Shown: positions 16,738 to 46,385 of the stretch, in pieces | Layout of the letters: the number at the start of each line of letters is the position of its first letter | How positions within the stretch are numbered: the stretch's first letter is position 1 | Assembly (NCBI GenBank): GCA_000697335.1 | Contig: JNEM01013289.1 | Span: 1 to 60,238, forward strand | Direction: 5' to 3' | DNA length: 60,238 nucleotides | DNA from: Conidiobolus incongruus B7586 | Lineage: Eukaryota | Position numbers and translations under genes: made by a program | The notes under the pieces: model-generated | The model's database searches: none | The model's input: the letters and a program-made list of their open reading frames with translations, nothing else | Told to the model about the DNA's origin: nothing

Positions 16738-16761
16738 ATATATATATATATATATATATAT
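16738..16761. repeat. (AT)n microsatellite
   Basis: Uninterrupted AT dinucleotide run. Confidence 0.8.
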
Positions 16762-18517
16762 TAATTTAAACTATTGAAAAATTGAATAAACTTTTATTTA
16801 CTACTAAAATATGATGCGTTTATCAGTATTAAATTTAATAAAATTTATATTAAATATAATAAACAGTAATTCCAAAAAACATAATTAACATTTATCAACT
16901 AAATTTAAAAATTTAAGTCAATATAATTAACTATATTAACTTTGAACTAAATCACGTTATTTTTAATATTGCTCTTTATTAGCAATTCCTATTTGCTATT
17001 AAGTAATTTTGTAATTTGTTGGTTTATAAAATTTATATCAAATCATTTAAAGACACACAATGAACAATTAATCATATACCAATATATGTCAAATAATAAA
17101 TAATTTATCATACCTAAATGCTAATATTAATAATTGTTTTGTTATACTTATATTATATTCTAGAATGGTGATTTTATCTAAATTTGCTATATAAATTTTA
17201 TAGTTAGTTTATTTGAAATTTTGACAAATTTAAAATATTTAATAATATATATTATCATATCTTAATACATCAAATTTCGTATGTAATTTAAACAAAAAAA
17301 GGTATTATAAAAAATAGAATTTTAAGAGCGATTGTTTACATGCAATTTATATTATCAGTCATAATACAAAAACAATATTATATAAGTATAACTATCAGTG
17401 TTGAAAATAATTCATGAAGCTATAATTTTTTCATTATAATAAATAGTTAATAATTCACTTTTTGCTAAATATATATTGATAAAAATGAGTATACCTTATT
17501 CAAGATATAACCGATTAGTGTTAATTTTTGAAATAGTTATATTAAATTGAATCAATATATTTATAAAACGAATATGATTAACAACTAAATAAAAACTTGG
17601 ATAATATGAAATATAACATGAGAGTTCTTTATTTATTAATTTATCTAACTTAAAAATTTTTTTAAATTAATTACCAATGAATCAGAACAATAATAATTTA
17701 TATTTCAAGGCAATAAATTGATAATTAAAATTAAAATTCAATTAAATGTGAATTATATTGGATTAATATAATTTATTTGAATATCAAAAAAAAAATTAAA
17801 GACTGAATAGAATGTAATAATATATTATTAAAGAATATTTGAAGTGAATATATTTATAAATAAATTAATTGATAATGAAGTGATGTGTAAATATAAACTA
17901 ATTATTAAAATTAGTAAAGGTCAAAAAATCTTAAATTAGATACACAACACATTACAAATATTCAAAATCAAAAGCAAGAATTTAAATTATTGATAAAATG
18001 TTAGTATAATAATGGAATACATACTGAAACACTAGTTGAATGAACTTGTCAAGTAATAGCAAAGTAAGGATGTAATAAGATCATACTTATATTCTGAATT
18101 ATCAACTGAATTAATGAAAGGAAAATAAATATGATAGTTTATATATATACAGATGTAAATGTCAAATTAAGGAAAAAGAAGTTTCGGAATAACATTGCTC
18201 ATGATATATTATGTATTCTTTGAAAATTTTAAATGCAGAGAAGAATAAAAAAATCTATATAAATATTTAGTATTATAGAAGAATAGAAATTAAATATACT
18301 AAGGGTGATTTGATAAAAAGCAATAAAAGACATATTATTTAGTACTTGCAACATAAATCGGATACTCGTTCGATATCGGAGGAATGCGTGAATAAATCCA
18401 AAGCTATTCTATAGAGAGTCAGATTGATAGTATTAGTACTCTAGTTATTCAATATGGTTGATTGCAATATAATATTTATTATTGGTACAAACCAAACCAA
18501 GTGGATAGTGAAGATTT

Positions 18518-20011: not shown

Positions 20012-20042
<31 letters not shown>
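20012..20042. repeat. (TA)n microsatellite
   Basis: About 15 uninterrupted TA units. Confidence 0.85.
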
Positions 20043-20045
<3 letters not shown>

Positions 20046-20046
20046 A

Positions 20047-20650
20047 TTAATTGGAACGCTTATTAGATAAATTTAAATTCGAACCATTTTGTGATAGTGA
20101 CCTCTTTTTGTTCTTTTTAGATGTCTAAAAAATGAAATATAAATATTTCAATATAATATTTTCAAATTATTATTTACTTGACATAAAGAATATAAAAATT
20201 TTAATTCTGCTTCATCTGTAATATGTCCGAAATCTTGAAACAATCACTAAGTATTAGTATTTATTATCATTTGATATTTTATTTACTCTGGTGGGGTAGT
20301 GGTTGAGTACAATGGTCGGGAATATATATGGGTAAACGATAATGTTGCGTTTCGTTTGGTTCATACTTTGATAATATCCCTTCGTTCGAGCTTAACCCTT
20401 CAAATAAGTCTTCCACTAGAATATATAGTTAATTGATTACTGATTCAGAATAGAAGTATTATCAAATGAATTACTTTTTGATTTTGAATAATTATTTAAA
20501 TCATTTTTTTGTGTTTTAACAAAGTGACCGGTTAAATTTCATTTATTATTCTTATGGGTTATTGATTATTTGTTAGTAATTATTTTTAAATATTGATTTT
20601 ATGGCAATAAATTGGTCATATTGGATAAATATTTAATGAAGTTGTTTATT
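20047..20650 (-). pseudogene. Decayed spliced gene of unknown family
   Basis: Three intact-looking GT..AG introns join in one phase to give ...IIIQNQK|WKTYLKG*ARTKGYYQSMNQTKRNIIVYPYIFPTIVLNHYPTR|*LFQDFGHITDEAELKFLYSLCQ|TSKKNKKRSLSQNGSNLNLSNKRSN*, with internal stops. Confidence 0.4.
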
Positions 20651-26790: not shown

Positions 26791-27816
26791 TGAAATTTTT
26801 TAGTGAAATTGAACTAGTTAAAAATATAAAGTTTTTCAAGAGTTATAGTATTTGAAAATAATTTAGAGAAGTTTAAGAAATTAAAAATACAAACAGATAA
26901 ATATAAAAATAAAAGTAAACTAAAAGGGTCAAATTATGTAAACTAACTTAAAAACTCAAAGATTAGACCGAAAAATAAGTTTTAAATGAAAGAACAAGTA
27001 AAGACCAGATCAAGTAGTCATATATGTTTTTGAAAACTGAATTTATAATCAAAAAATTTAAGCGCTATCACCTCTATTTATATCCGATTGAGCCACAGTA
27101 CCAAATTTAGGAACTTACATCCTTAAATTCAACTATAAATTTTCTTAGCCAATAGATTTTTGTTAGAGTGATCTAATTATTAACGTTTTAATTGATTAGC
27201 AAGAATTATGTATAACCATCCAATCAAATGTCAATTTTATTAAACACGAAAGATGATTTGAAATGCTATAAAATTTTGGTGATGATAATAAACACATTGA
27301 TCAAATAATTTTTATCAGCGTTTTTAGTTTAATATGATATATAAATTCATATTATCATCATTAATTTTAAGTCAAAGTTATTATAATATTTTCATAATTT
27401 ATTTTTTATCAAATAATAGATTAATATTATATAATATGCAATCGAAACAACTGAAACCCTTTTCAATATGAAAATAACCTTGGATTTTAAATCCAATAAT
27501 TATCTTTTAATTAAATGCAATATTTTAAATATATAAACGTAAAGTATATCTTGTTAAAAATGATATTAATTAATTCTGTTCTAAACTTAACAATAATCAT
27601 CACAGAAATTATTTCAAAGGATGTATTATCATGATAAAACATCTTCAAGAGTAGTTTAACATCGAAACATACATTGAAATTGATTATTTGTTCTACATTT
27701 ATTAAATATTTTACTAATTTTAAAATTCATTAATTGTTTAATTAATAATATTAGAAAAGATAATTAGTAAAATTTTGAAAAAATTATTAGAAGAATAAAT
27801 CAGGTTTAGTAATTAC

Positions 27817-28215
27817 TTATAATTAAACTGTTCCAAAGTTGTTCAATTTTGATCACTGTTATCCAAGTCTTGTATGAAGTCCAGAGACCCCAAGGAGGTA
27901 AACCTCAACGCTAATCCTGGAAGATTGGCCTGATTGTTTGTTAGATAGCAAGGGGATATTTTTAATTATATTGATCTTTTAATATATCTTTATAATATTT
28001 ATGATATTTGAAAACTTTGGTTAATCCAAGTTACATATATAAATATCAAGCATTTTCACATATTTTGCTTATAAAATACTTGTCATTAACTATTACTTTA
28101 CATCAAAAGTATTCTTTTATAAGGTAAGATTTGCTCATATTTGTAATAAAAATATTCTAATATTATTTTGGCCTTTTTACTTTCAATTCATCTATGTTTT
28201 CTTTTTATTGATATT
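27817..28215 (-). mobile_element. Truncated, degenerate TnpB/Fanzor2 element 3' end (copy A)
   Basis: Reads IKRKHR*IESKKAKIILEYFYYKYEQIL..KEYF*CKVIVNDKYFISKICEN..LGLTKVFKY..KNI..CYLT, a transition-mutated Fanzor2 C-terminus. 75/98 identity with 37203-37300. Confidence 0.8.
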
Positions 28216-29599
28216 TTATCTTATTATATTTTTTAAATTTAAAAAAAAAATTATTAATAAATTTCATTCTTTTTCTCATTTAAATCATCTTAACAAATAT
28301 ATATATATATTATATTTTGATAATTCATATATTAACTCTTGTTAAAAAATCATACAAATGTATATATTTATTTAAATCATAATAATTGATGATTATTTAT
28401 ATTATATAAATTAAATAATGGCAAAATTTTGAAAAATTAAATATAATTTTTCAAATATAAAGTTAAAAACAGATAAAAATTATAGATATAATACTCCTTT
28501 TTATTAACAATAGCCTTGGCTATATTTTTGATTAAATTTCCAATATTTTTAAATTAAAATTTTCTATTAAAGATTAATATTTAATATTTTGTAATTTAAT
28601 TATATCTGTTTATAAAAGTTTTTTTTCTTAAAAGCGAAATCTTTAATTACCCAAAATTATTATAATTATATAAATTATAATCTGGTGAATATATTAGATA
28701 TGATAGTTTTATGCATTTTTTAAAGAAAATTATTGGTAAATTGAATTTTATATATTTTTCAAATATTAAAAAAAATAATTAATATCTTTAATTTATAATT
28801 AAAATATGATTTAGAAACAATCTTATTTAATAAATAAAATATTCATTTTTAATTAATTAATTTTTGATAGTTAAATAAAAAAGTTATATATTATTATAAT
28901 ATATAATATTAATTATTAGTAACTTATAAATATAATGTTTTTTATAAAATAGTTATTTTGACATAACTTAAAATTTTGGTTTAATTTCAAAAACTATAAA
29001 AAAGAACAAAGTTTACTAATTCTAGATATTTAATATTAAATTTTTATTTTTGAATATATTTTTAAAGGTTTTATTTAATTATAATTTTTTGATTTTTTTA
29101 AGTTTTAAATTATTTATTATTTATTATTTATTGTTTTTTTAAAACCCAAATCTAGTAAAAAATATATTATATTCTTTTTTAATATCTTTTTATACCTTTA
29201 TTTTTTATTTAAATTCATTTATAATTTACTCTTTATTTTATCTTATTTATATTATCTAAAATCTTACCTTAATAAATAATAAGTTTTATAACTTGAAATA
29301 AATTGCTACCCTAGTTTTTAGCATTAGGATAGTATAAAATAGTAATTTTGAATAAAACATTTTTTTTATAAAATTACTTATAGAATTTAATTAACTTTAA
29401 TAAGTTTATGTCTGTATTAATATATTACCAAATTAATAAACCCTTGAATATCAATTTCCAGTTTAATTATGATAAATTCAGAAATAAATATAAATAAAAA
29501 ATAATAATTTTATTAATTTTTTAAAATATTTTTTTCATAATTAAAGAATTATTTAAAAAGTTTAGCATTTTTTTCATAATTGATAATTATATATCCTTT

Positions 29600-31495: not shown

Positions 31496-31569
31496 TGATC
31501 TTACTCAGATTCAAACTGAAGACTGTTTGTGTGTTAGACAGATGTGATAACCAACTACACCATGAGATC
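31496..31569 (-). pseudogene. tRNA-Val(AAC) pseudogene
   Basis: GATCTCATGGTGTAGTTGGTTATCACATCTGTCTAACACACAAACAGTCTTCAGTTTGAATCTGAGTAAGATCA. D arm/A box and AAC anticodon loop are intact, but the T loop reads TTTGAAT instead of TTCGA and the acceptor and anticodon stems contain mismatches. Confidence 0.85.
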
Positions 31570-37156: not shown

Positions 37157-37290
37157 ATATAATCAAAATTGTTCAATATTAATCAAATTTAATCAACTCT
37201 TGTCCAAGTCCTGTATGGAATCCACAGACCCCAAGGGGACAAGCCCCAATACCAATCCTGGAAGATTAACTTGATTATTTGTTGACTAGC
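37157..37290 (-). ncRNA. Candidate (degenerate) omega-RNA scaffold of the Fanzor2 element; paralogue at 27817-27950
   Basis: Lies directly 3' of the RuvC-III motif, is the GC-richest and best-conserved part of both copies, and contains hairpins GGGG-CTTG-(T)CCCC and GGGGTC-TGTG-GATTCC. Confidence 0.5.
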
Positions 37291-37752
37291 AAAAGAGTAT
37301 ACTTTTAATAATATTAATGTCTTGATCCATTTTTTATGATATTAAAAATACTTGAAAGTTTTAATTGAATCCAGTTAAATATTCAAACACTCAAAACTAC
37401 TATATGTTGTGCTTATGTGAAAATTATATTATTACGATATACCAAAAGTACTCTTTTATTTTGTTATATAAAGTTTTCTTAAATTTGCAATAAGATTATC
37501 TTAACATTATATTTGTATTTTTACTTTTAATGCATTTATTTGCTTTTCTCATCATCATATAATTGTTAAATTAAGGAAATATAGTAATAAGATATTTATT
37601 CAAAAATCAATCTAATAGATTTATTATAAACCTTGTTAATATGATTTTTGGTTTTTTAATATTTTTAACTACGTTTCTCACTATATTGAGATTTAAATAA
37701 TAGATTTTTAGTATAATTTATTTTACAGCCTGTTATATTTATGGTAAAATTG

Positions 37753-37774
37753 ATATATATATATATATATATAT
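37753..37774. repeat. (AT)n microsatellite inside the Fanzor remnant
   Basis: AT dinucleotide run interrupting the decayed ORF. Confidence 0.8.
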
Positions 37775-39818
37775 TAATAGAAATTAAAAAATAGCTTGAT
37801 ATTAAAGTTTATGATTAAAGGTTAAAATTATTTTTTAATATATTTTATCTAATAATTTAACCATAAATTTTTTTTCATTATTTAATTTAATATCTAAATT
37901 TATAAAACATTTTATAAAAAACATATTATAACCGCGTTTTTCTAATAATCTCCAAGTTAATTATATTTTATTGTAGTTAAAATTAATTGGGTTAAAAACA
38001 TTATTTTATAATTTATATAGCAAATAGTGATTTTTTGAATATAGTTTTTTATTCAAATTTAACCTTTTTATATATAGTATATTTAAAATTATATTAATTC
38101 AGATGGTTATTGGTTAATTTATTTTAAATATGGTGAGGATATTCTAATACTTATTTGTTATCATCCTTAAAAAATTATATTCAAACATTTAATTTTTGAT
38201 TCTTATAATTAGATATAAGAAATTTTTTAACAGTAATTGTATATTTATTAAAAGTTAATCTTATTTTTTATATTATATGATTAAATTCTTCTTGTCAAAA
38301 ATTAAAATAAACTTGTTTTTTGATTATATTGTATTTTATATTAAGCTATTCTTATCCGCTTTATTTTTCTAGAAGTAATCTATCATACTTTGGTATAAAA
38401 TATACAAAAATATAAACAGATTATAGGTCAGGTTATTTGTTGAGATATGTTTTTAATATACAATAAATAACTATATATTTTATTTTATTTTTTTCCAAGA
38501 TTAGTTTAAAAAGCCAAGATTTATCTATAAAAATGTTGATTTGTATTGGTAATAGTAAACTTAAGGAATAGTTTGTTTATATAATTTTTTAATTAAGTTT
38601 AAAAGCTAAGAAATTTATCATTGAGTTTGATCTAACATCCCATATGATGTTATATTTAAAAAAACTACCTTTAGGTTATAAGACTTATTTATGGTTTTAT
38701 TTTGGTGTTTAAAAGAGACTATTATGAAAAATGTTTAGATTTTCAATGTTAATATTGCTTTTTACTTAATTAAAATGTTGCTCAATATCTAAAACTGATT
38801 ATTGCTTGAATTTATTTAGAGTTTGTATGATTCTAATCTTTTCCAGTTCTATCCCAACATCTAAAAATGCTTGATAAAATTCCAAATTATTTTCTTATTT
38901 TGGGGGTAGAAGTATATTTAGAATTGTTTTACTTGTCTAAGAATAGCAATAGTGTGCTTTGTGCTGCATTGCTTGTAACTAAATATTATTATGTAAAAAT
39001 ATCCAAGTATCTGGGGTGCAAGTCATAGTTTATCTATGACTTGATTGAATATCGATAGGTGTATTCAAAACAAGTAGAAATTCTGGGAATGATATTGTTA
39101 ATCTGATGATGGATATTTTTAATTTTGGAATAATTCTTTAATATCCATATTTGATTTTATATAAAGATAATATCTAGATTATGTGAATTATGATTTACAG
39201 TTTAAGTATATGATTTTTCTTGAAAATTGAAAACTATTCTACAATTATGTGAAGAGAATTACTATAGAAACAATTTAATTATGATTCAATCATAATCGAA
39301 TAATGTTCAACATTAAAAAAGATAAATTATCTATGACTAATATACTTTTAATCACTTGTTATTTGAAATTTAGTTTATAAATTAGGAAAACCCGATCCCA
39401 TAATGAAAACAAAGTATACCCAATTTACTAAATTTGACCAATTTGAGGAATAAGCTTAGAATTCAACAAAAAACATTTAGAAAAGTAACTTGAAAAGATA
39501 CAACCTTCAATAGAGAATTTAAACCACTATCATTCGAACTTTTATCACAGCTATCACATTATACTTTGAATATCTCGTTTAAGCACTCGTCAATAGAAAA
39601 ATTAAATTATCAAATTTTATAAAACAAGTATGCAAAATTTTAATTATAAATTCAGTCTCAATTTAATTTGAATTCATTTCAAATTTTGAATATAATTTTT
39701 TCAAGATGACTTTTCTAGCTTAAGAAACATATATTTCAAGTTGTATTCTATTTGAATATTAACCAATTTAAAGCATATCTAGCTACTATACTGCCAAGTT
39801 AGGTGTATTTTATACATA

Positions 39819-43650: not shown

Positions 43651-46385
43651 ATGTTGCGTCAATTTGCTAGATCAAAACAAAATATTAGATTGAATAATTT
43701 GGATAAGGTAAAATAAACTATACAAAACAAACTTGATTTTGACTTTTAACATAATATTTAGTACTATACTTATTCATCTAAATCCAATACTTGGAAGGTT
43801 CCATTACATTCTGAATGGTGTGAGTTAGTTAAAAAGGAACTCAAGGGTAAAGACCCCGAAGAAACTTTGACTTGGCATACTGCTGAGGTAATTAATTAGT
43901 CACTTGTTTATTAATGTTAATTAACGCATTATTTTATATATTCAGGGTATTAAAGTCAAGCCAGTATATACCAAAAAGGATATCGAAGGTATTGAAGAAG
44001 AAATCCCAGGCAAGTTCCCATTTACAAGAGGTCCTTACGCCAGTATGTATACATATCGTCCTTGGACAGTTCGTCAGGTATATTTTCTTACAATATTCCA
44101 ATTCATACAAACTAATAGTATTATAATAGTATGCTGGTTTCAGTACGGTAGAAGAGAGTAACAAATTTTACAGAAAAAATTTGGCTGCTGGTCAACAAGG
44201 TTTAAGTGTTGCTTTCGATTTGGCCACCCATAGAGGGTGATACATTATTAAATGATTACATAATATAATATTAACATCATTGCTATAGTTATGACTCAGA
44301 CCATCCTAGAGTAGTGGGTGATGTAGGTATGGCTGGTGTAGCTATTGACAGTGTAGAAGATACCAAAGTAAGTAGATTTTATTATTATGGCTTTATATCA
44401 AATTAACTTATTTGAATAGATTTTATTCGATGGAATTCCTCTCAATAAAATGTCAGTATCTATGACAATGAACGGAGCCGTACTTCCCATTTTAGCAATG
44501 TACATTGTCACCGGTTTAGAGCAGGTAATCATACTGCTGCAATGCAATTTATGGAAAGTAACAAAATAATTATCTATAGGGAGCTAAACTCAGTGAACTA
44601 GCAGGGACTATCCAGAACGATATTTTAAAAGAATTTATGGTGCGTAATACTTTCATTTACCCCCCTAAACCTTCTATGAGAATTATTGGTGATATCTTCT
44701 CTTATACTGCCAAGGTACCGATACAGACTAAAACTACTAATGTGTAATATCATAACACCAATTCTTTAGAATATGCCCAAATATAATTCCATTTCTATTT
44801 CTGGTTACCATTTACAAGAAGCTGGTGCTGACAATGTCCTTGAATTAGCCTTCACCATTGCTGATGGTTTAGAATATGTTAGAACTGGTAATAATTTCTA
44901 TATTATACAAATTATAAGATATTATTGACATTTATATTATTGAAATTGTATAGGTATTAAATCAGGTATGACTGTTGATGAGTTTGCTCCTCGTCTATCC
45001 TTCTTCTGGGCCATTGGTATGAATTTCTATATGGTAATGAAAGCTGATTCAAAAGAAAGCTGTTTTTTTTTATTAAATCCCATTAGGAAATTGCCAAAAT
45101 GAGAGCTGCTCGCAGATTGTGGGCTCACCTGATTAAAGAAAAGTTCCAACCTAAAAACAAGAAATCTATGCTCTTAAGAACTCACTGCCAAACCTCTGGT
45201 TGGTCCTTGACCGAACAGGATCCTTACAACAATGTTATCCGTACCACAGTTGAAGCTATGGCTGCTACCCTTGGAGGAACCCAATCTCTCCATACCAACG
45301 CTCTTGACGAAGCCATTGGTCTCCCCACTGAATTCAGTGCACGTATCGCCCGTAATACTCAATTGATTCTTCAAGAAGAAGCTATGATTCCCAAGGTTGC
45401 TGATCCATGGGGTGGTTCTTATATGATGGAGTCCCTTACCAACGAAATCTATGAAGCCGCTCTTAAACTCATCAATGAAATTGAGGAGATGGGTGGTATG
45501 GCCAAGGCCGTAGATTCTGGTATGCCCAAACTTAAGATTGAAGAGAGTGCTGCCAAGCGTCAAGCCAGAATCGACTCTGGAAAAGAAACTATTGTTGGTG
45601 TTAATAAGTACCGTTTGGAGAAGGAAGATGACTTGGAGATTCTGGCCATTGATAACACCAAGGTACGCAAATCCCAGATTGCTAGAATCGAAAAGGTCAA
45701 GGCTGAACGTGACAGTCAAAAGGCTCAAGCTTGTCTTGATGCTCTTACTAAGTGTGCTGAAACTGGAGAGGGTAATTTACTCGAGTTATCTATTGAAGCT
45801 GCTAAAGCCAGATGTACCGTTGGTGAAATTTCCTATGCTTTGGAGAAAGTATTTGGCCGTCACCAACCTCAGAATCGTGTAGTCAGCGGTGCTTATAAAT
45901 CCGAATATGGTGAACACGATGAAGTTAAATTAACTCAAGAAGTCATTAGTAAATTCACTCAAGATCACGGTCGTCCTCCTAGATTGCTTGTTGCTAAGAT
46001 GGGTCAAGATGGCCATGACCGCGGTGCCAAAGTTATTGCCTCTGGTTTCGCTGACCTTGGTTTCGACGTTGATGTTGGTCCCCTTTTCCAGACCCCTGCT
46101 GAAGTAGCCCGCCAAGCTATTGATGCTGATGTACATGTTATTGGTGTTTCCTCTCTAGCCGCCGGTCATAAGACCTTGGTTCCAGCTTTGATTGAAGAAT
46201 TGAAGAAGCTTGGTGCTGATGATAAATTAGTCATTGCTGGTGGTGTTATCCCTGCCCAAGACTATCAATTCCTATTTGATAATGGTGTTGCTGCCGTATT
46301 TGGACCAGGTACTAAGATCCCCGTAGCTGCTAGAGAAGTAGTTGAAAAGATCGACAAGTCGCTTCAACAAGCATCAACTCACTAG
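43651..46385 (+). CDS. MMUT: Methylmalonyl-CoA mutase, mitochondrial, adenosylcobalamin-dependent; multi-exon
   Basis: Presequence-like [87 protein letters not shown] and the B12-binding [13 protein letters not shown]. Confidence 0.97.

Follow-up and report, generated by a model that had tools for sequence, protein, structure and literature searches.

The segment at 37157..37290 on the minus strand is, with high confidence, the 3′ (right-hand) end of a dead Fanzor2 (IS607-type TnpB) element copy, one of two copies (A and B; Table 1) in the window—that is, in the whole 60,238-nt stretch of DNA analyzed here. The GC-rich core of the segment is a candidate fossil of the element's ω-RNA scaffold, now disused; this is the best single reading of the sequence, and its chances are judged to be about even. 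The reading is drawn from position, geometry, analogy within the family, and sense-strand changes that are tolerant of G-U pairing. In position, and in position only, the core lies where an ω-RNA would be expected, in frame with the ORF tail and close to a right end at 37157 in copy B and 27816 in copy A. The original prediction of an ω-RNA scaffold is borne out with respect to position, distance to the right end, viral analogy, and slower G/C decay, but not with respect to structure beyond chance or similarity to Rfam and viral sequences.

Table 1. Features of the two element copies found in the window.
Feature	Positions	Strand	Evidence
Copy B, 3′ end of decayed Fanzor2-type element, candidate ω-RNA interval	37157..37290	-	99 of 135 columns invariant relative to copy A (27816-27948)
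Copy B, GC-rich core with three short hairpins, in frame with nuclease ORF tail	37203..37269	-	Genome-copy depth peak ~15x single copy; G/C retention 26/40
Copy B, AT-rich terminal tail with 10-nt repeats, in-frame TGA (37195-37193), right end 37157	37157..37202	-	TRF; homology to copy A stops
Copy B, decayed C-terminal third of Fanzor2/IS607-type TnpB ORF	37286..37600	-	Fanzor2 profile; motif scan
Copy A, counterpart of candidate interval; core 27862-27928, right end 27816	27816..27948	-	Alignment; genome-copy depth up to ~18x
Copy A, decayed Fanzor2-type ORF remnant ('CKVIVNDKYFISKIC', 'LGLTKVFKYHKY', 'INIIKNI'), frameshifted	27949..28270	-	Profile positions 40-86

The window consists of AT-rich eukaryotic DNA, with a GC content of 13–20% in intergenic regions versus 30–42% in exons, and its genes are spliced and fungal-looking, including genes for ribosomal proteins and methylmalonyl-CoA mutase. 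The latter is represented by a long exon at 45087–46385 (+) encoding the C-terminal half of the protein, with 55–66% identity to bacterial enzymes, and constitutes a B12-dependent enzyme in a fungus-like genome. A gene for tRNA-Val (anticodon AAC) is located between copies A and B at 31496–31569 (−). (AT)n microsatellites were found at 16738–16779, 20015–20056, and 37751–37792, the last of which occupies the expected place of the upstream part of the copy B ORF.

Copies A and B form repeat units of at least 390 bp (27818–28205 and 37158–37547) that are 70–71% identical (E 5e-42). In their local alignment, 277 of 392 columns are identical, and 62 of the 94 substitutions are transitions, indicative of deamination-type decay of the copies. 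Neither a third copy (searched for with a two-copy nhmmer profile) nor an inverted copy of the element end was found in the window. The right end was set at 37157 and 27816 because homology between the two copies ends there and because the loose ends of two other contigs diverge there, being already unrelated before 37156. Both copy ends read TTT(G/A)ATTATA, and the end at 37157 lies 141 nt past the ..NI of the RuvC-III motif.

The 10-bp terminal repeat that had been described was recovered in copy B, at 37160–37196 with a period of 10 and 3.7 units (TRF), but not in the terminal tail of copy A by the same program. Such repeats, together with the palindrome TGATCAAATTTGATCA, would be the putative binding sites if the segment had acted at the level of DNA, as the right-end recognition region for a transposase (an IS607-type serine recombinase or other mobilizing enzyme). 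This explanation is unlikely. It is consistent with the repeats of copy B, with the ..GATCAAATTTGATC.. that loose ends of other copies show at the place of the terminal tail, and with the terminal TTTGAT(T), which is similar to the ..AATATTTGAT conserved where chlorovirus-type elements end; Fanzor2 has also been described in IS607-type elements without TIRs or TSDs (Bao and Jurka, 2013). However, it accounts for the AT-rich tail and not for the GC-rich core, copy A is without the repeat by TRF, a short end-motif match in AT-rich DNA could be due to chance, and the surroundings of the two copies showed no gene for a transposase.

The upstream ORF had been proposed to encode a Fanzor-type nuclease, and this assignment holds. 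IMG/VR was scanned with the back-translated EYTSKTCxxCG motif, which yielded 71 loci, many of them on giant-virus MAGs and genome-sized (330–370 kb) contigs, and a C-terminal profile was built from 57 distinct segments out of these 71 giant-virus Fanzor2 loci. Searched against 1206 six-frame chunks of the window (hmmsearch), the profile had its top match in copy B, at 37600–37440 (−), with 17.0 bits and an E-value of 2.9e-4; the runner-up, an unrelated match, reached 8.9 bits. The match spans from the RuvC-II 'LPxFE' region to '..W.H..FR..L..K.EY'. In a shuffle control, the copy B score (17.7 bits) was reached by none of 500 shuffles, and the 2.4 bits of copy A, unaided, by 15 of 500. After restoration of G/C, copy B scored 23.0 bits and copy A 15.7 bits summed over two collinear pieces, in both cases with 0/500 shuffles reaching the score. 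A full-length Fanzor2 profile (42 proteins, 523 positions) matched the same place in copy B with its positions 401–453 and detected nothing further upstream, the region of the RuvC-I Asp included. Only about the last third of a Fanzor2 ORF is recognizable as such in the sequence.

The elements preserved in copy B comprise the RuvC-II region, a zinc-finger remnant with Cys-to-Tyr replacement, and a RuvC-III remnant, 'DQDINIIKSIL', at 37327–37295, within an ORF broken by stops and frameshifts, including a TAG at 37285–37283. The Fanzor2 motif given by Bao and Jurka (2013) is D-X(125,275)-[TS][TS]-X-X-[C4 zinc finger]-X(5,50)-RD. At the [TS][TS]xxC place, copy A reads ISKIC and copy B reads ISTTY; the zinc-finger Cys pairs appear as C/Y (FKYHKY, FKYF*Y), and RD appears as QD in copy B. 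In both copies, G-to-A or C-to-T changes would suffice to explain all of these departures from the motif. In the AT-rich DNA of the window, any one motif of the ancestral-set scan recurs often, with 12 to 367 matches per window. On the strength of the profile, the upstream sequence is, with high confidence, the decayed C-terminus of a Fanzor2-type (IS607-type TnpB) protein.

Other searches did not single out the copies. No Pfam family, PF07282 included, matched the three minus frames of the 2.85 kb upstream of both copies or the 390-bp units. PDB matches to E6 and NKG2-D obtained with phmmer (E ≥ 0.27) were dismissed as chance. A word-indexed protein search (5-residue words) gave 15 candidates for the copy B tail (46 aa) and 49 for the copy A frame (129 aa), none with E ≤ 10 among the longer proteins that the search covers. 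Profiles built on 27 Bacillota TnpB C-termini or on 98 TnpB proteins of Bacillota and phages/viruses did not make the copies stand out; the G/C-restored copies scored no more than 2.1–3.2 bits with TnpB profiles, and 42 and 19 of 1000 shuffles did as well. By Smith-Waterman alignment compared with shuffles, the two copies showed no significant homology beyond the upstream edge of the 390-bp unit, though the Fanzor2 profile extends the copy B remnant to 37600. With the window's own remnants as queries, no intact nuclease of the family was found.

The core has a GC content of 42–55% versus 10–25% upstream. The claim that it had kept far more GC than the nuclease ORF proved correct: among sites that are G or C in at least one of copies A and B, 26 of 40 were kept in both copies in the core versus 22 of 76 in the ORF part (Fisher p = 3e-4), and the higher retention of the core persists inside CA, CC, and CT contexts. 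Plain identity showed no difference (54/68 in the core, 185/252 in the ORF part; p = 0.35). Deamination is lower in locally GC-rich duplex DNA, and this, not present-day selection, most simply explains the slower G/C loss of the core. That slower loss is the sole hint of constraint among the observations, and it can be explained neutrally.

As had been predicted, the ORF tail reaches into the segment, and it keeps the frame of the RuvC-III remnant. From 'DQDINIIKSIL', the copy B reading frame continues through the core (..STNNQVNLPGLVLGLVPLGSVDSIQDLDKS) to the TGA at 37195–37193, its sole break being the TAG at 37285–37283, where copy A carries TAT. Furthermore, a 'YLT' following NILL is common to the window tail and Fanzor2 tails. 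The core is open in all three frames, so that openness proves nothing; the continuing frame and the shared 'YLT', on the other hand, suggest that the core probably lay within a family-specific C-terminal tail of the nuclease ORF. The main rival to a fossil scaffold is a core with no RNA role at all, made up of the extinct nuclease's G/P/A/L-rich coding tail together with DNA of the element end; this is possible, if rather doubtful. Its apparent preservation would then result from slower cytosine deamination in GC-rich duplex DNA and from the easier alignment of GC-rich stretches, and the frame running to the TGA, the TAT of copy A, the 'YLT', and a core identity no different from that of the ORF part are all in keeping with it. 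However, no protein in a 5.8-billion-cluster collection (proteins of 82–2000 aa) shares the tail; most Fanzor2 relatives stop 3–28 aa past ..NI, compared with ~34 aa here; and the differences between copies A and B at codon positions 1, 2, and 3 (5, 3, and 6) carry no coding signal. Moreover, an RNA scaffold can coincide with a coding tail in Fanzor2, as illustrated by chlorovirus-type elements. Patterns of the core DNA had no matches in metagenome contigs or in viral contigs, and core peptide and DNA words are absent, save for two chance matches, from the supplements of Saito et al. (2023) and from 12 of the 14 supplementary files of Bao and Jurka (2013).

The three hairpins reported for the GC-rich core were confirmed on the minus strand of both copies, with 31 of 32 stem cells paired in the 67-nt core. 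Between copies A and B, one pair differs at both positions (G-C in B, A-U in A), four show a one-sided change from G-C to G-U, and one has a mismatch only, and compensatory pairs thus number 1 of 16. The one-sided changes that keep a pair are C-to-U changes giving G-U, which pair only in minus-strand RNA. In these two fully readable copies, the structure is no better than chance. Compared with dinucleotide shuffles, the fold energy of the 80-nt core gave z-scores of −0.06 (B) and +0.18 (A), and that of ~144-nt versions gave −1.18 (B) and +0.97 (A). In simulated decay with four random G/C-to-A/T stem changes per copy, at least 31 of 32 cells stayed paired in 10% of trials (P = 0.10), and changed columns are about equally frequent in stems (8/32) and in other core columns (5/21). 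Rfam contained nothing at gathering score for the candidate segment; a snoRNA match in that search (E = 8) was rejected as chance. Overall, there is no evidence that the core folds beyond chance. The z-scores near 0 and the pairing retention at P = 0.10 would be expected of a core without an RNA role, as would the stem-breaking changes in other genome copies described below.

Contigs of the DNA runs X1–X4 were mapped to the window at ≥80% likeness, with a single-copy depth of ~15–17; runs X5 and X7 yielded no matches. Contig depth rises from ~15 to ~230 over 37210–37271 and from 17 to ~317 over 27866–27892, from which it follows that the family has roughly 15–19 genome copies still matching the core. 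Among genome copies, the core is the part of the element with the most matches at ≥80% identity, and the AT-rich tail between core and element end (~45 nt) varies between subfamilies. The flanks of copy A at 27704–27784 (~3–4x) and 28217–28432 (up to ~24x single-copy depth) are also multi-copy among source contigs at 80% likeness, a signal that is at least partly attributable to AT microsatellite or low-complexity sequence. One source contig joins 27895 to 28021 and is an internal-deletion derivative, with 125 bp missing from mid-core to the zinc-finger remnant.

The proposed G/C-restored consensus matched the two-copy alignment column by column and, for the most part, the other copies too. 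The majority letters of these copies restore G/C in copy A at 27912, 27905, 27902, 27896, 27877, 27870, and 27857 (52–91% of depth). The string failed at three places: the majority has T at 27910, 'AC' versus the 'GT' of copy B at 37240–37239, and, at 27873, G instead of the A found in both window copies. Behind 27948/27949, the loose ends of other copies read I-N-I-A-R-S-M and I-N-T-V-R-N-L-L on the minus strand at the RuvC-III place; judged from these translations, other copies hold a better-kept RuvC-III motif. With respect to the stems, a G-to-A change at 27891 and a C-to-T change at its partner 27876 occur in different contigs, judged by matching contig depths in both runs, and a G-to-A change at 27881 occurs without a variant at its partner column 27886. 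Several copies therefore carry uncompensated stem breaks; haplotypes are decodable from contig depths for a few low-frequency variants.

These data bear on the suggestion that the relative preservation of the core reflects continued use in trans, which found no support. A core that is a living ω-RNA module under selection, still transcribed and serving in trans an intact Fanzor2 encoded at another genomic site, is very unlikely. The slower G/C loss (p = 3e-4), the concentration of copies with ≥80% identity on the core, and the conversion of most one-sided stem changes to G-U pairs on the minus strand would be in line with such use, and other Fanzor hosts provide precedents for ghost ω-RNA loci (Saito et al., 2023; PMC10432273). 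However, no intact nuclease was recovered with the window remnants as queries, several copies have uncompensated stem breaks, the fold z-score is near 0, and both window copies carry ORF remnants and are hence not ghost loci. Indeed, both keep ~100 codons of ORF remnant, unlike ORF-less ghosts, and the loose ends of other family copies also run on into the RuvC-III region.

The closest known systems include the Fanzors of Glomeromycotina. Supplementary file 3 of Saito et al. (2023; PMC10432273) includes 'FZ2' Fanzors of Rhizophagus, Gigaspora, Scutellospora, and Diversispora, among its entries being Rhizophagus irregularis CAB5365895.1, Gigaspora margarita KAF0471510.1, Scutellospora calospora CAG8439319.1, and Diversispora eburnea CAG8448100.1. 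By eye, these entries and the window remnants share the same motif order and spacing, ..EY..CKVI.V..YTSKTC..CG....LG..KVFKC..C....DRDINGARNILLKYLT; 'KVFKC' occurs three times in that file, every time in FZ2 rows. The hosts and the window are also similar in genome style, both being AT-rich with spliced genes of fungal type. In contrast to the tabulated FZ2 proteins, the window copies are dead (stops, frameshifts, Cys-to-Tyr replacement), and their tail after NILL is longer and GC-rich. In the R. irregularis FZ2 protein of that file (row 1871), 'FMYGNC' takes the place of the 'FKC..C' of relatives, and 'DRN' that of 'DRD', and this annotated gene may be degenerate too. Among the papers listed as naming both 'Fanzor' and 'Rhizophagus', the titles and the opening parts of abstracts contain no description of guide RNAs or element ends of Glomeromycotina Fanzor2.

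The viral relatives provide a measure of the expected geometry. Diverged copies of viral Fanzor2-type loci cease to be homologous 116–126, 148, or 157–188 nt past the ..NI motif, and for giant-virus IS607-type Fanzor2/TnpB elements (loci L200–L270) the resulting range of right-end distances, 116–188 nt, includes the 141 nt of the window. The viral ORFs are intact, unlike those of the window; the loci include some in chlorovirus-sized genomes and are comparable to ISvNY2A_1 and ISvAR158_1 of Bao and Jurka (2013). In 14 chlorovirus-type elements (L204, L206, L212, L216, L227, L233, L240, L245, L253, L256, L259, L261, L262, and L269), the sequence from RNILL to the right end folds into 46 consensus pairs, 12 of them compensatory. 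This multi-hairpin structure begins inside the ORF tail and stops at ..AATATTTGAT; covariation thus shows that a structured RNA overlaps the ORF 3′ end in chlorovirus-type Fanzor2, and by analogy this 3′ structure is the model for what the window core would have been. The similarity to sequence downstream of intact Fanzor2 genes that the original prediction had called for was absent across the 71 viral loci with blastn and covariance models. Specifically, the window core had no blastn similarity to 62 viral Fanzor2 downstream regions, a covariance model built on copies A and B had no match among the 71 loci (best E 2.1), and neither copy was matched by a model built on the 3′ regions of the 14 chlorovirus-type elements. 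The 3′ comparison covers viral loci, and these comparators are distant from the window family.

In TnpB and Fanzor systems, the scaffold RNA overlaps the ORF 3′ end (Saito et al., 2023; PMC10432273). In the system of SpuFz1 from Spizellomyces punctatus described in the same study, the scaffold lies between or over the ORF 3′ end and the right end, like the candidate interval of the window, and multi-copy right-end relics in a fungal genome are common to both. However, SpuFz1 is a Fanzor1 with 30-nt inverted repeats, unlike the Fanzor2 of the window, the Spizellomyces ghost ω-RNA loci are without an ORF, whereas the window copies retain ORF remnants, and SpuFz1 RNAs were shown by small RNA-seq, whereas the RNA of the window is a candidate.

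A fossil ω-RNA scaffold would imply the following for the active ancestor. A minus-strand transcript running from ~37290 to 37157 would have formed the nuclease-binding scaffold, and its continuation into the flank below 37157 would have supplied the guide, as in TnpB/Fanzor systems. Against the fossil scaffold stand the fold z-scores near 0, the single compensatory pair, the retention at P = 0.10, and the uncompensated breaks in other copies. In addition, the ~45-nt AT-rich tail separates the core from the element end, and for a scaffold that must abut its guide, an intervening variable tail of this length is unusual.

Published tables already include Fanzor2 genes of such fungi, and other Fanzor hosts already provide cases of ghost or decayed ω-RNA ends. 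The segment is useful for annotation as a fossil—a TE remnant, not a gene, a new RNA class, or a new mechanism. If the core were a living module after all, this AT-rich, Glomeromycotina-like fungal genome would contain ~15–19 guide-RNA cassettes that had persisted beyond the loss of their own nuclease genes, and the threefold slower G/C loss of the core would be a footprint of selection. Overall, the locus fixes the right end of one Glomeromycotina-like Fanzor2 family and the interval in which its ω-RNA would lie, and it offers a multi-copy alignment target for covariation.
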